Positions 13,933 to 60,193 of a DNA stretch of 64,000 nt are shown here, piece by piece. Within the stretch, counting starts at the first letter, position 1, and each line of letters starts with the position of its first letter. The DNA comes from an uncultured Nitrososphaerota archaeon (GTDB lineage Archaea; Korarchaeota; Korarchaeia; Korarchaeales; Korarchaeaceae). The DNA is taken from assembly GCA_964594835.1 (NCBI GenBank), contig CAZQNA010000004.1, forward strand, positions 106,450 through 170,449, in the 5' to 3' direction. The notes beneath the pieces are model-generated. The model worked only from the letters and a program-made list of their open reading frames with translations. It made no database searches and was not told the origin of the DNA. A program made the translations under genes and the position numbers.

Positions 13933-15264
13933 ATGGGGAGCCCAGCCAGGGTGTACATCGAGACCCACGGCTGCACGGCCAACAGGGCGGACTCCGACGT
14001 GATGGCCGCCCTGCTCCAGGGGGCGGGCTACGAGCTGGTGGGCTCCCCCGAGGAGGCCGACGTGATCGTCCTCAACACGTGCAACGTGAAGAAGCCGACG
14101 GAGGACAGGATGGCGCACAGGATCTCCCGACTGGCTGAGCTCGGCAGGCCCGTGGTGGCCGCGGGCTGCATGGCGCTGACCCAGCCCTCGAGGCTAAGGG
14201 ATCACGCCACAGTACTCCTGGGGCCGAAGTCCATTCACAGGATAGTGGAGGCGGTTGACCTAGCGAGGAGGGGCTCGAGGGCGGAGTTCCGCGACACGTC
14301 CCCCATAGACAAGGCCGCCCTCCCGAGGAGGCTGGGGTCGGGCGTGTCGGCCCCCCTGCCGATAGCCGAGGGGTGCCTTGGGGCCTGCACCTTCTGCATA
14401 ACCAGGTTCGCCCGCGGGAGACTCAGGAGCTTCTCCCCCCGCCTCATAGTCGAGAGGGCCTCTGAGTTCCTCCGGGCGGGGGCGGTCGAGCTCCAGATAA
14501 CCGCCCAGGACACGGCCGCATACGGTCGGGACATAGGGTGGGACCTCCCGAGGCTCCTCAGGAGTCTCCTGGAGCTGCCGGGGGAGTACAGGGTCAGGGT
14601 GGGCATGGCGAACCCGAACACCCTGGCCAGGGTGGTGGACGACCTCCTGGGGGTCATGGGGGACCCCCGGGTCTACAGGTTCCTGCACGTCCCGGTCCAG
14701 AGCGGGAGCGACGAGGTTCTGAGGAGGATGGCCAGGGGCTACAGGGCGTCGCTCTTTGAGGAGATCGCCTCCAAGTTCCGGACTGCCTTCCGAGACACAA
14801 CGCTCGCCACCGACGTGATAGTGGGCTTCCCGGGGGAGACCGAGGACGACTTCGAGTCGACCCTGAGGCTGCTCGAGAGGACGAGGCCCGAGATCGTCAA
14901 CGTGAGCAGGTACGGACCCAGGCCCGGGACCCTCGCATCCAGGTGGAGGCCCCCAGACCCCAGGGAGGTCAAGAGGCGCAGCAGGACGCTCTTCTCCCTG
15001 GTCAGAGAGCTGGGCCTGAGGGCAAACGAGGCCTACGTGGGCAGGGAGCTCACGGCGCTCGCACTGGAGCGTGGCCCCAAGGGGTACCAGGGGAGGACTG
15101 ACTTCTACAGGCCCGTGGCCCTGCTCGGGGATGACGTGAGGCTCGGGGTCTTCTACGACGTCGTCGTCGAGGAGGCCAGACCCAGCTACTTGGTCGCCAG
15201 GGTGCTGGCCGCCAGGGAGCCTGCCGCCCCGACCGCGGGGGGAGCTCACTCGGTTGGGAAGTAG
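13933..15264 (+). CDS. mtaB: tRNA t6A37 methylthiotransferase (MiaB/MtaB family radical SAM)
   Basis: THGCTAN, NTCNVK, GCLGACTFC, PVQSGS, IVGFPGET, C-terminal TRAM-like domain. Confidence 0.9.
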   Translation: MGSPARVYIETHGCTANRADSDVMAALLQGAGYELVGSPEEADVIVLNTCNVKKPTEDRMAHRISRLAELGRPVVAAGCMALTQPSRLRDHATVLLGPKSIHRIVEAVDLARRGSRAEFRDTSPIDKAALPRRLGSGVSAPLPIAEGCLGACTFCITRFARGRLRSFSPRLIVERASEFLRAGAVELQITAQDTAAYGRDIGWDLPRLLRSLLELPGEYRVRVGMANPNTLARVVDDLLGVMGDPRVYRFLHVPVQSGSDEVLRRMARGYRASLFEEIASKFRTAFRDTTLATDVIVGFPGETEDDFESTLRLLERTRPEIVNVSRYGPRPGTLASRWRPPDPREVKRRSRTLFSLVRELGLRANEAYVGRELTALALERGPKGYQGRTDFYRPVALLGDDVRLGVFYDVVVEEARPSYLVARVLAAREPAAPTAGGAHSVGK

Positions 15265-16340
15265 TCGTATATGGGCCACTGGGCCGGCCTGAACCCCTCC
15301 GCGGCCTCCGGCTCCTTGAGCACGAGGACGTAGAGGTTGCTGGAGTAGCCGACGACCCTGTCCGCGAGTTCGGGCCTGCCCATCTCCTGGGCGACCTCCT
15401 CTGCCAGCCAGTATATCGGGCTGTCCCTTGCCACCACGTATCGGTTCAGTCCCACGACCACCCTCTCAACCGCGAAGCCCATCTCACCGAAGCTCCTGAA
15501 CACCCGGCTCATGTGAGAGCCGAGCTCGTCGGGCAGCAGGCAGACGTACCCCCTCCTCCCCCTCTCCTTCACCAGGGCCTCCCAGCCCCTCAGGGTGAAG
15601 GTCTGGACGCCCGGGAGCGTGTACGTGGGGTCCGCCAAGAAGACGTCGTGCCGATCCCTGAGCCCCTTGGGGATCGGCCTGGTCAGGTCGTGCCTGACGA
15701 CCCTGATGTCCAGCCCCCTCTCCCTCGCCAGGTCCTCTATCCTCCTGATCACCCTCTCGTCTAGCTCGAAGACCGTCACCCTGACGTCGAAGCTGCTGGC
15801 GAGGACCAGGCTCTGAAAGTCGTCGTCTCCCATGATCGCCACGCTCTTCCCGTCCAGGGGAACGTCCGAGGCCACCTCACTCAGCCTCCTGAGGAGGCTC
15901 TCCCTAGACACCTGGAGCTGGTCGAACTCGTAGTTGACCTCTATCCTGGGCACGAGTTCGACGGCGGACTCGTCCGGCGCCTGCCTGCCGAACGGGTTGA
16001 CCCTGAACCTCACCCCACCGTCGTCGTCAACCTCGGCCAGGCCGGACTCCTCCAGGGCCCTCGCCAGGTTAAGGGCCCTCTCGGGTATCAGGGGCCCCTC
16101 CCTCACGAGCCTGTCCAGGCGACCGAGCCTGAAGAGCCGGTACGCCAGGACCTCGAACTCGAAGGGAGACAGTCTGTGGACCCTCTCCCAGGACACCCTG
16201 CCCTCCTCGGGGGACTTCCTCCCGTAGACTGTGCCGGCCGCCTTGACCGTGGACTCCAGGTCGTACTTGGAGAAGAGCAGGAAGGCCCTCCTCAGCGCCT
16301 CCCGGCCAGGCGGGTGACCCCCATCCAACCGCCCACTCAT
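15246..16340 (-). CDS. bpsA: branched-chain polyamine synthase (BpsA/DUF43 aminopropyltransferase)
   Basis: EFDQ, IMGDDDFQSL, ELDERVI, HDL, DPTYT..G..F motifs of the DUF43 family. Confidence 0.82.
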   Translation of the reverse strand: MSGRLDGGHPPGREALRRAFLLFSKYDLESTVKAAGTVYGRKSPEEGRVSWERVHRLSPFEFEVLAYRLFRLGRLDRLVREGPLIPERALNLARALEESGLAEVDDDGGVRFRVNPFGRQAPDESAVELVPRIEVNYEFDQLQVSRESLLRRLSEVASDVPLDGKSVAIMGDDDFQSLVLASSFDVRVTVFELDERVIRRIEDLARERGLDIRVVRHDLTRPIPKGLRDRHDVFLADPTYTLPGVQTFTLRGWEALVKERGRRGYVCLLPDELGSHMSRVFRSFGEMGFAVERVVVGLNRYVVARDSPIYWLAEEVAQEMGRPELADRVVGYSSNLYVLVLKEPEAAEGFRPAQWPIYDYFPTE

Positions 16341-16708
16341 CTCCCCTGTCTTTCTCGGGCCCTGCCGGTCTTTATCTCGACGACGCTGTCGTTCTCTGGT
16401 CTAAGCCTCTCTCTCAGGAACTCCAGGGCCCTCTCCTGCCAGTCCGACCTCCCGGGGGCGAAGTCGACTATGTTCACCGTGGCGTAGTCGTGCTCGGGCC
16501 AGGTGTGAAGGGCGACGTAGCCCCTCTCAGTGAGCAGGAGGGAGCTAACGCCGTAGGGCTCGAACTCGTGCACGTGAAGGGCCTTGACCTCGAGCCCGAG
16601 AGCCCTCGCGAGGTCCCTCAGCATGGACTCCATCAGGGCGGGGGAGTCGAGCGCCTCGGACTCCCCCACGTTGTAGAACTCCACAATCACGTGGCTCTCC
16701 AGCGACAT
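16337..16708 (-). CDS. S-adenosylmethionine decarboxylase-like protein lacking the pyruvoyl-forming Ser
   Basis: HVIVEFY, FEPYGVS and HTWPEHDYA are present, but ESH is replaced by RGY and TCG by DFA. Confidence 0.85.
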   Translation of the reverse strand: MSLESHVIVEFYNVGESEALDSPALMESMLRDLARALGLEVKALHVHEFEPYGVSSLLLTERGYVALHTWPEHDYATVNIVDFAPGRSDWQERALEFLRERLRPENDSVVEIKTGRARERQGR

Positions 16709-16755
16709 CCCGTTTTACCGGATCTCTCGCCCTAAAAAAGGCTCGGGGGCGGGGT

Positions 16756-17421
16756 CTACAGCCCCGCGGAGGAGCCGGGGGACAGCTCGATGACCTCGAC
16801 GTCCAGCCCCCTGGCCTTGACCTCCTCTCTGAGCTGACCTGGGGTTCCCCATAGGACGGGGAACGTCCCGTAGTGAATCGGCAGGACCCGCGGGCTCCCC
16901 AGCATCTCCAGCGCCTTACCGGCCTCCCTCGGACCCATGGTGAAGTGGCCGCCTATCGGGAGGATGGCGAGCTCCGGGGAGTAGAGCTCTCCGATGAGGC
17001 TCATCCCCGGGAAGATCCCAGTGTCCCCCGCGTGGTACACCGTGAGCCCGTCGGGGAACTTCACCACGGCCCCCGTGGGGGCCCCGAGCGGGGAGCTGTG
17101 GAGAGCCTCGGTCAGGACTACCTCGACGTCCCCGACCTTGAAGGGCCCGCCTATGTTCGCCCCGACCGCGTCGGCCCCCCTCTCCGAGGCGTGGTTCGCC
17201 AGCTCGAATATCCCCACGACCTTGCCGCCCCTCTCCTTGGAGAGCCTTATCGCGTCTTCGAGCCCGTGATCTCCGTGTCCGTGCGTGACGACGTACGCCA
17301 ACACGTCCCCCGGCACCTCTACGCCCCTCGGATACGCCGGGTTGTCCCTTATCCACGGGTCGAACAGGACCCTGACGCCCCCGGACTCGACCAGGACGTT
17401 AGCGTGGCCTAGGAATGCCAC
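16756..17421 (-). CDS. metal-dependent hydrolase (UPF0173, MBL fold)
   Basis: LGHA, THGHGDH, ALHSS, YHAGDTG, PIGGHFTM, PIHYGTF; a CTG start at 17430 is possible. Confidence 0.92.
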   Translation of the reverse strand: MAFLGHANVLVESGGVRVLFDPWIRDNPAYPRGVEVPGDVLAYVVTHGHGDHGLEDAIRLSKERGGKVVGIFELANHASERGADAVGANIGGPFKVGDVEVVLTEALHSSPLGAPTGAVVKFPDGLTVYHAGDTGIFPGMSLIGELYSPELAILPIGGHFTMGPREAGKALEMLGSPRVLPIHYGTFPVLWGTPGQLREEVKARGLDVEVIELSPGSSAGL

Positions 17422-59296: not shown

Positions 59297-59365
59297 GCCC
59301 GACCGCCCTGAGGGGCCGGTCGGTCCCCCATGATTTGAGCCCCATCCCCCAGCACAGCTGGCTAG

Positions 59366-60193
59366 CTAGCTCTTGGGGGAGAACCTGATTATCCCCAGGC
59401 CGTTCTGCCTGTGAGCCCCGACCCCGACGAGCTCACCCAGCCTCATGAGCCTCCCGGCCCAGGTGGCCATCTCCTCGTGCTGCTTCGGGGACCAGTTGGG
59501 GTGCATTATGCACTTGTAGTGGGCCCACCCGACGAAGCCCACGACGTTCTCTCCCCCCACCTCTATGGGCCTCGACGTGCACAGCTCGTGCCCGGTCTCC
59601 ACCACGCTGAGCCTCGCCCAGGAGACTATGTCCCTCATCCTCGGGCCGTCCCCCCTGAGCCTGTTCCAGCTGCTCGCCAGGCTGTGGATCAGCATGGAGG
59701 GCAGGGGGAAGAGCCTGCAGTACGGCGTGGACTGCCTCCTGAACAGGGTGGGGGTGAGGAAGTTGACCCTGAAGGCCTTGACGGGCTCGTCGACGAGTAT
59801 CTCGTCCCAGTCGAGCCTATCGGCCTCCACGGAGATGACCTCGAACTCCATCCCGGAGAGCCTCACCCTCGGGCTCCTGGCGGCCCAGTTCCGGATTATC
59901 GTGGAGGCCGCGTCGCTGAACGTCACGACCCTGGCCCTGTAGGTGGCCCCCCTGGAGATCCCCACGGCCCTCTCGCTGCACTCCACCAGCGGCCTGGCGC
60001 CCGTGTACAGGGGGGAGGCTATCACCTGCCCCCGCGGCCCTGCCATCCTGATGGCCCTGGCGGTCAGCGGGTCGGCGGAGGACATGGCCCTGAGGACGGC
60101 CCTCCTGAGCGGCTCACCCGTCGCGGTCAGCTCTCCGTCCTCGTGGGCTGTTAGCTCCAGAAAGATCGTCCATATTGGTGGGGGTTGCACCAA
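59366..60193 (-). CDS. cas6: Cas6-family (RAMP) endoribonuclease, orphan
   Basis: VNFLTPTLFR, LFPLPSMLIHSL..W, GFVGW, C-terminal G-rich loop GVGAHRQNGLG. Confidence 0.85.
   Translation of the reverse strand: MVQPPPIWTIFLELTAHEDGELTATGEPLRRAVLRAMSSADPLTARAIRMAGPRGQVIASPLYTGARPLVECSERAVGISRGATYRARVVTFSDAASTIIRNWAARSPRVRLSGMEFEVISVEADRLDWDEILVDEPVKAFRVNFLTPTLFRRQSTPYCRLFPLPSMLIHSLASSWNRLRGDGPRMRDIVSWARLSVVETGHELCTSRPIEVGGENVVGFVGWAHYKCIMHPNWSPKQHEEMATWAGRLMRLGELVGVGAHRQNGLGIIRFSPKS

Follow-up and report, generated by a model that had tools for sequence, protein, structure and literature searches.

What does a decarboxylase homolog do once it has lost the residues with which the enzyme makes its own cofactor? 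This question is raised by a gene in a 64,000-nucleotide stretch of the genome of an uncultured korarchaeon (assembly GCA_964594835.1, contig CAZQNA010000004.1, positions 106,450 to 170,449; the whole stretch is referred to here as the window). The gene encodes a paralog of S-adenosylmethionine (AdoMet) decarboxylase (AdoMetDC; SpeD) that lacks both the serine of the self-cleavage site and the catalytic cysteine, here called dead SpeD. It overlaps the gene of a relative of the branched-chain polyamine synthase BpsA, and the original prediction, made from the letters of the window, had taken the dead protein to scaffold or regulate BpsA. A second, Ser-bearing speD paralog lies in the same window. 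By comparing the two proteins with their relatives, we arrive at the suggestion that the two genes encode a heteromeric class 1b AdoMetDC with one composite active site, dead SpeD being its non-processing subunit, a reading that we consider probable, with considerable reserve.

Dead SpeD is a conserved member of the class 1b family

Both sequence and fold place dead SpeD in the class 1b SpeD family. The protein matches the PF02675 (AdoMet_dc) profile with 80.7 bits (cut-off 25) over profile positions 1-105 of 107 and, in a phmmer comparison, the AdoMetDC of Thermotoga maritima (1tlu) with an E-value of 2.9e-15 over a gapless core; its 70.9 bits against TIGR03330 stay under the cut-off of 75.65, so that the AdoMetDC equivalog score is not reached. 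The AlphaFold2 (AF2) model of the protein has a pLDDT of 90.4 and matches 1tmi and 1tlu in Foldseek with TM-scores of 0.79-0.83. Relative to the T. maritima enzyme, E62 is replaced by R, S63 by G, H64 by Y and C83 by F, and the HTWPE motif is intact; the window protein accordingly has R62, G63, Y64 and F83, with H47, F49, P51, S55, H68 and E72 retained. This gapless alignment bears out the original description of a speD-like open reading frame (ORF) without the Glu-Ser pair, the following His and the catalytic Cys, and the two ORFs were found as first delimited (Table 1). In the dead clade no position around the cleavage site is conserved as Ser, Thr or Cys, so that dead SpeD cannot form the pyruvoyl cofactor, as had been foreseen.

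We searched 43 genomes of the phylum with a profile of the dead clade, accepting as orthologs matches with an E-value of 1e-42 or better. The dead paralog is present in 30 of them, all members of one family (f1) with four genera: g1 (5/5, including the genome of the window), g2 (1/1), g3 (20/21) and g4 (4/4). All 30 orthologs are open reading frames, and the cleavage site reads xGY at all 30 loci. The 31-row alignment of the clade has 27 invariant columns at identities to the window protein down to 43%. In each of the 34 unique sequences of the clade the Glu-Ser site is absent and position 63 is Gly, the column of the proton-donor Cys83 holds Phe or Tyr, and His68 and Glu72 of the HTWPE motif are kept. 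The median ratio of non-synonymous to synonymous substitution rates (dN/dS) is 0.135 for the dead paralog and 0.142 for the Ser-bearing paralog, calculated from the 48 of 435 and 48 of 171 pairs that were usable in the pairwise NG86 method (0.1 < dS < 1.5), the remaining pairs being saturated or too close. An intact ESH motif in relatives would have pointed to recent decay of this one copy; with xGY at every locus, the invariant columns and the low dN/dS, recent pseudogenisation is ruled out and the dead paralog is conserved under selection.

The clade is narrow and sharply set apart, because among 1.84 billion representative proteins a single cluster exceeds 86 bits against its profile (222.8 bits). 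Named relatives on contigs of the GTDB set are metagenome-assembled genomes (MAGs) labelled 'Thermoproteota archaeon' and Candidatus Methanodesulfokora washburnensis, and the next matches beyond the clade in this set, at 39% identity or less, are ordinary SpeDs.

The two SpeD paralogs have complementary losses

The genome of the window has exactly two PF02675 genes, those of dead SpeD and of the Ser-bearing paralog. The latter scores 93.4 bits against PF02675 and 79.4 bits against TIGR03330, and it contains the GESH and SSCKD motifs. It had been described as intact; we find instead that the HxFxPxGVS block is missing, that position 72 is Gly in the genome of the window, and that residues kept by the dead copy have been lost. 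To place these losses, positions conserved in 135 canonical single-domain SpeDs were compared column by column in 34 unique sequences of the dead clade, 19 Ser-bearing paralogs and 22 domains of fused proteins. In the dead clade H47, F49, P51, S55, H68, W70 and E72 are retained at 100%, down to the identity of 43% given above, and the lost columns have K, R or E62, G63, Y64 and F or Y83. The Ser-bearing paralogs keep E62, S63, H64 and C83 at 100% (19/19). They have Q, M, K or H at position 47 (His in g1, g2 and g4 only), lack F49 and P51, carry L or I at position 55, and retain H68 in 17 of the 19 sequences (Thr in g2, Arg in g4) and E72 in 9 (otherwise D, N or G).

The pair is thereby divided as class 2 AdoMetDCs are, with Glu-Ser, His and Cys in the Ser-bearing half and the strand-12 His and Glu together with the HxFxP..S block in the dead half; the halves are not joined in one polypeptide, the dead one being encoded at 16.5 kb of the window and the Ser-bearing one at 58.9 kb. 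Judged by residue content, the two proteins are complementary half-enzymes, and the supposedly intact paralog is not intact. What the dead copy keeps, the Ser-bearing paralog has lost, and this suggests the other SpeD, not BpsA, as the partner of dead SpeD.

The same division is found in two-domain SpeDs collected from the 1.84 billion proteins. Their domain with ESH and Cys is degenerate at positions 47, 49, 51 and 72 (E72 in 2 of 10), and their Ser- or Cys-less domain has H47 in 10, F49 in 10 and E72 in 11 of 12 cases, with or without a remaining Ser. F49 and E72 would therefore act in trans, because the AdoMetDC domain of the fusions fails to keep them, as it would be expected to do if they bound the substrate in cis.

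The Cys83 column deserves a separate remark. Phe or Tyr occupies it in the dead clade and in the Ser63-less fused domains of P0039, P0061, P0125 and P0062 (three Phe, one Tyr); in the remaining fused non-catalytic domains the column holds P, A, Q or S or is a gap. The aromatic residue may plug the unused site.

The paralogs occur together

The Ser-bearing paralog (E-value of 1e-50 or better) was found in 24 genomes, each of which also carries the dead gene, and in none by itself. The prozyme analogy drawn in the original prediction, in which a dead AdoMetDC activates the live enzyme, points in the right direction; both paralogs are present in 24 of the 30 genomes. SpeE is found alongside the pair in g1 (4/5), g2 (1/1), g3 (19/21) and g4 (3/4). 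Genera g5 and g6 are without SpeE and without either SpeD paralog, and the sister lineages g7 and g8 have a single canonical SpeD with every residue. In a quick maximum-likelihood tree each paralog forms one clade (SH-aLRT 99 and 100). A constraint that joins both paralogs as one clade is not rejected (approximately unbiased (AU) test, p 0.897), and the constrained tree is 72 log-likelihood units better than the quick free search. The tree is compatible with, and no proof of, a duplication within family f1.

A proposed two-gene AdoMetDC with one composite active site

Class 1b SpeD is a face-to-face dimer, and both chains contribute to each active site. Glu-Ser, which becomes the pyruvoyl group, and the proton-donor Cys come from one chain; the strand-12 His and Glu of the HTWPE motif come from the other, as do the aromatic and Ser residues that precede the motif. 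For the korarchaeal pair we infer a physical heterodimer, its activity and a dependence of processing on the dead subunit. The products of the 16.5-kb and 58.9-kb genes would assemble face to face, the latter contributing Glu62, Ser63 (as pyruvoyl), His64 and Cys83 and the former His47, Phe49, Pro51, Ser55, His68 and Glu72. Ser55 and His68 of the dead subunit would aid self-cleavage at the Glu62-Ser63 bond of the partner, Phe49 and Glu72 would hold the adenosine, and the pyruvoyl group and Cys83 of the partner would perform the chemistry. Each heterodimer would have one canonical AdoMetDC site and one dead site, and the dead subunit would be required for self-processing of the partner as well as for binding of AdoMet. 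The product, decarboxylated S-adenosylmethionine (dcSAM), would be supplied to SpeE and, in g1 and g2, to the BpsA-like enzyme, whose gene directly behind dead speD would make a speD-aminopropyltransferase operon at the level of the genus.

Several observations weigh against this proposal. The dead gene stands alone in 6 of the 30 genomes, and a recheck with PF02675 agreed in the five that were reexamined. In three of them (G011, G016 and G018) the contig runs no further than the conserved 275-aa gene next to the missing Ser-bearing gene, or breaks off within it, and the absence is due to assembly breaks. The other three are G010, G036 and G032 (72%, 82% and 63% complete), and their lack of the Ser-bearing gene stands against the proposal; in G010 and G036 the 275-aa neighbour is missing as well. 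Dead and Ser-bearing genes are 42 kb apart and are not co-transcribed. The Ser-bearing paralog exceeds the NCBI cut-off for the AdoMetDC equivalog (79.4 against 75.65 bits) and may be self-sufficient. The canonical set consisted of the top matches to the dead-clade profile, a choice that may exaggerate how well the positions kept by the dead clade are conserved. F49, P51 and S55 were put in the trans half on what we take to be their equivalence to human F223 and S229 and on residue spacing. Finally, the fused proteins analysed here may differ from those assayed by Li et al. 2023.

Alternative functions of the dead protein

Of the other readings, the one that survives best, and which we still regard as unlikely, holds that the Ser-bearing paralog is self-sufficient and that the dead protein works by itself, probably as a homodimer, in the non-catalytic binding or sensing of AdoMet, decarboxylated AdoMet or methylthioadenosine (MTA), or is a purely allosteric regulator of the prozyme type. 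It would explain why E72, a ligand contact, is invariant after the chemistry residues have gone; F49 is presumably a ligand-contact residue too. The TIGR03330 score of the Ser-bearing paralog agrees with it, and so does P0045 (320 aa), in which a SET methyltransferase domain (PF00856, 29.4 bits) is joined to an AdoMetDC domain that has Ala in place of Ser and no Cys; judged by its domains, P0045 is another non-catalytic use of the AdoMetDC fold beside a SAM-dependent enzyme. This reading does not account for the exact match between what the dead paralog keeps and what the Ser-bearing one has lost, or for the drift of H68 and E72 in the latter, and the genome has no further SpeD-family gene that could make dcSAM with a canonical site. 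Class 2 AdoMetDC (PF01536) was not detected in five genomes, a search in which the family was also undetected in 14 of 14 control genomes.

In a second reading, which we hold to be improbable, the homodimer of the Ser-bearing paralog decarboxylates arginine or ornithine, and the dead subunit switches the pair to AdoMet and in that way sets the ratio of diamine to aminopropyl donor. The homodimer would pair its pyruvoyl group with its own altered trans residues, as in the SpeD-derived arginine decarboxylase (ADC) and ornithine decarboxylase (ODC), and pairing with the dead subunit would give the canonical AdoMet pocket and thereby dcSAM. If this were true, living archaea would provide, in this unfused pair, a model of the stage that preceded the fusion leading to eukaryotic AdoMetDC. 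PdaD was not found in the genome of the window, and an agmatinase-family gene is present. The reading is weakened by a divergent decarboxylase of the pyridoxal phosphate (PLP) fold beside deoxyhypusine synthase, which could be the ADC or ODC instead. At this site (locus L065, on contig C6 of G000) the deoxyhypusine synthase gene (492-1433, +; NF002294, 338.7 bits) is followed after 33 nt by a gene for a 351-aa PLP decarboxylase of the alanine-racemase fold (1467-2522, +) that scores 77.6 bits against lysA (cut-off 297.9) and is a candidate for the ADC or ODC of the hypusine and polyamine pathway.

A third reading, that of the original prediction, sees in the dead protein a pseudoenzyme that serves the BpsA-like aminopropyltransferase as a subunit, in the role of scaffold, regulator or dcSAM channel, comparable to the AdoMetDC-like N-domain in animal spermine synthase. 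The arrangement of the two genes (Table 1) invites it. In the window the stop and start codons overlap, and the purine-rich AGGGGAG at 16341-16347 precedes the overlap. In the five g1 loci the genes overlap by 4 or 8 nt, in line with the translational coupling that had been proposed. In the single g2 locus the BpsA-like gene is also directly downstream; its longest ORF overlaps dead speD by 91 nt, and an internal Met would reduce this to 1 nt. The dead model also resembles the N-terminal domain of human spermine synthase (3c6k, E-value 1.6e-6, TMq 0.60), and the existence of SpeD-SpeE fusion proteins indicates that physical coupling of the two steps recurs.

Table 1. Features of the window that are discussed in the text, with positions counted from its first nucleotide
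Feature	Position	Strand	Remark
MiaB-like radical-SAM methylthiotransferase	13933..15264	+	Convergent; conserved in g1 to g4, where it delimits the locus downstream
Divergent BpsA-family (PF01861) aminopropyltransferase-like gene, 364 aa	15246..16340	-	Start overlaps the dead speD stop
ATGA stop/start overlap of dead speD and the bpsA-like gene	16337..16340	-	From the sequence
Ser-less, Cys-less SpeD paralog (dead SpeD), 123 aa	16337..16708	-	Class 1b SpeD homolog; proposed non-processing 'C-half-type' subunit of a heteromeric AdoMetDC
MBL-fold metal-dependent hydrolase (NF001911/PRK00685)	16756..17421	-	Directly upstream of dead speD
Ser-bearing SpeD paralog, 128 aa	58910..59296	+	E62, S63, H64 and C83 kept; proposed pyruvoyl 'N-half-type' subunit

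The neighbour itself is a BpsA relative. Its protein matches BpsA_C (PF01861) with 100.8 bits (cut-off 27), over profile positions 13-184 of 243 only, and the BpsA structure 5xnc with an E-value of 1.2e-16, and its gene is the one PF01861 gene above the cut-off in the genome. The AF2 model (pLDDT 85.9) has its best fold matches in the BpsA structures 6j27, 5xnf, 5xnc and 2qm3, at E-values of 1e-16 to 1e-14. The FDQ and GDDD motifs are kept, and the GDDD residues Asp159 and Asp160 together with the Asp of FDQ are invariant in 11 sequences, the offset from chain to native numbering on 5xnc being our own count. In a 2026 review (PMC12979288), Asp159/160 of BpsA are assigned a role and a C-terminal acidic cluster (Glu339, Asp342-Glu345) takes part in a ping-pong mechanism. 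The C-terminus of the window protein lies outside the HMMER alignment and ends in ...PIYDYFPTE, with Y358, D359 and Y360 as the sole invariant residues there in the 11 sequences. Because this C-terminus does not align to the acidic cluster of BpsA, we call the neighbour BpsA-like and leave its product unspecified.

The distribution of the neighbour speaks against a BpsA subunit. With the protein as query, the BpsA-like gene is found in g1 (5/5) and g2 (1/1) and not in g3 (0/21) or g4 (0/4), that is, in 6 of the 30 genomes with the dead paralog; no PF01861 match above the cut-off exists in g3 or g4, and 3 of the 21 g3 genomes have methyltransferase-like matches below it. Ser-less speD stands beside a BpsA-like gene in all of g1 and g2 and in none of the other 24 genomes. 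The locus is otherwise alike in these genomes: in g3 and g4 the dead gene lies between the upstream MBL-fold hydrolase gene and the convergent MiaB-like gene with nothing intervening. Among 5.8 billion proteins the BpsA-like subfamily has only five close relatives, so that it is younger than the dead clade or of narrower distribution, and a scaffold role leaves the invariant H47, F49, P51, S55, H68 and E72 unexplained. Complex prediction for the BpsA-like and dead proteins, run without controls, gave an ipSAE of 0.00 in both runs (mark 0.32), which tells neither for nor against binding. From the distribution we find the proposed role in scaffolding or regulating BpsA unsupported as the main function, and very unlikely.

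Two sequence elements of this locus may be mentioned. A TTTTTTA box at 16733-16739 of the minus strand lies 25 nt upstream of the dead speD ATG, in the 47-nt gap after the hydrolase gene, and may be the archaeal TATA box of a leaderless speD-bpsA-like transcript; at Korarchaeum-type loci hydrolase and dead speD overlap and there is no such gap. In G037 (g4) an ORF for a TnpB/OrfB-like transposase with a C-terminal zinc-finger motif (L014, 1-1099, -) is inserted just downstream of dead speD.

It is likewise highly unlikely, and for us somewhat harder to maintain, that the dead protein is a partner of the upstream metallo-beta-lactamase (MBL)-fold hydrolase (UPF0173/PRK00685; 206.6 bits against NF001911), for example as a nucleoside-binding accessory. 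The hydrolase gene is directly upstream on the same strand at 28 of the 30 loci, mostly with an overlap of 11 or 4 nt; of the two loci without a full hydrolase ORF, one lies at the edge of a contig and the other has in-frame stops. Of the 43 genomes, 38 have the hydrolase, among them those of g5 (5/5), g6 and g7, which are without the dead paralog, and the two do not co-vary. A functional link by co-distribution is thereby ruled out; what is shared is position, not distribution.

That dead SpeD is a functionless relic of a duplicated speD is hardly credible: the loss of the pyruvoyl Ser and the catalytic Cys would fit, and this reading is already contradicted by dN/dS and the invariant columns, as well as by the open reading frames in all orthologs and the confident AF2 model.

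Neighbourhood of the Ser-bearing gene

In g1 to g4 (L001 and L045-L048) the Ser-bearing speD gene is convergent with a gene for a 275-aa protein without an assigned function (59366-60193 of the minus strand in the window), beyond which lies a gene for a P-loop kinase-like protein of about 200 aa. At L068 (G011:C40), L069 (G018:C13) and L070 (G016:C16) the contig stops either at this conserved 275-aa gene or no more than about 50 nt from it. The spot that corresponds to 59297-59365 of the window thus seems to break assemblies, three independent ones in this case.

Relation to known AdoMetDC systems

The division of residues proposed here is that of class 2 AdoMetDC. As set out by Kozbial & Mushegian 2005 (PMC1282579), both halves of the sandwich of eukaryotic AdoMetDC contribute residues: the pyruvoyl Ser, an adjacent Cys and a strand-3 Glu lie on one side, and a strand-12 His involved in proenzyme processing and a Glu that contacts the ribose hydroxyls lie on the other; taken together, the two eukaryotic halves make up the pattern conserved in prokaryotes, and the T. 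maritima structure confirmed a sandwich of two identical chains. Volkov et al. 2016 (PMC5201418) likewise locate the pyruvoyl group in the N-terminal sheet and assign TbY243/HsF223, which binds the ligand, to the C-terminal part. The korarchaeal pair resembles the class 2 enzymes of human (AMD1) and potato (PDB 1jen, 1i7b and 1mhm) in having one half with Glu-Ser and Cys and one non-processing half with the strand-12 His and Glu, and the dead model matches class 2 chains with a TMq of 0.60-0.65. It differs from them in that the halves are separate proteins, of 123 and 128 aa, with genes 42 kb apart, and in that it shows clear class 1b homology and is without the eukaryote-type dimerisation extension.

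Another parallel is offered by the bacterial fusions of SpeD1 to a degraded SpeD2, of the Victivallis vadensis and Desulfobacter types, in which a processing domain is paired with a degraded homologous domain. In Li et al. 2023 (PMC10407285), experiments assign AdoMetDC activity to the N-terminal domain of SpeD fusions, the V. vadensis fusion with a degraded C-domain is an active AdoMetDC, eukaryotic AdoMetDC is derived from a bacterial SpeD-SpeDC fusion, and no SpeD fusion was found in archaea. The pattern of loss and retention in the fused proteins that we collected equals that of the korarchaeal pair column by column. Unlike the korarchaeal proteins, which are unfused and archaeal and for which the position of the dead clade as sister of its partner is not rejected, these proteins are fused and bacterial, and their dead domain was derived by the authors from ornithine decarboxylase (SpeDC). 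Among the collected proteins, P0018 (269 aa) is a two-domain SpeD with the NCBI label 'MAG: adenosylmethionine decarboxylase [archaeon]'; if this label is correct, archaea do have SpeD-SpeD fusions, against what is stated in PMC10407285. Other architectures are a Ser-bearing SpeD fused to a spermidine-synthase domain in one polypeptide (P0012, P0014, P0023, P0031 and P0147) and a protein kinase fused to SpeD (P0135).

Three further systems share single traits with the korarchaeal pair. The trypanosomatid prozyme (PDB 5tvm and 5tvf) is a dead paralog without the pyruvoyl Ser, and according to PMC5201418 its heterodimer is needed for activity of the live paralog; the dead model matches prozyme chain 5tvm_B with an E-value of 1.1e-4. 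Prozyme pairs edge to edge with a complete class 2 enzyme and relieves autoinhibition allosterically, and the korarchaeal dead protein would, unlike prozyme, supply half of an active site, face to face. The N-terminal domain of animal spermine synthase (PDB 3c6k) has, like dead SpeD, a dead AdoMetDC fold associated with an aminopropyltransferase. That domain serves dimerisation. It is fused to the transferase, unlike the korarchaeal gene, which is separate and has a transferase gene adjacent to it in 6 of 30 genomes. The SpeD-derived arginine decarboxylase of crenarchaea (Sulfolobus solfataricus SSO0536, as cited in PMC10407285) belongs to an archaeal genome that, like the korarchaeal one, has a pair of class 1b SpeD paralogs whose functions have diverged. 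The korarchaeal pair differs in that one paralog cannot form pyruvoyl. Both crenarchaeal paralogs reportedly self-process and are catalytic, a result attributed to Giles and Graham in 2008.

Implications for AdoMetDC evolution and for korarchaeal polyamine synthesis

Full-text literature searches found no description of an archaeal dead SpeD or of a heteromeric class 1b AdoMetDC, a full-text search found no paper on a Korarchaeum S-adenosylmethionine decarboxylase, and the word Korarchaeota has 0 occurrences in Li et al. 2023 (PMC10407285). The korarchaeal pair bears on the question of how eukaryotic AdoMetDC, a fused pseudo-dimer with a single active site, arose. If the two paralogs form a split AdoMetDC as suggested here, the eukaryote-type division of residues would occur in an archaeal lineage and could come from plain duplication of speD, and specialisation of the halves could precede their fusion. 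The dead gene would then probably be essential for the synthesis of dcSAM in the genomes of family f1, and the 'live' Ser-bearing gene may be inactive alone. For korarchaeal genomes with the paralog pair, the labels 'dead' and 'live' may therefore mislead in annotation.

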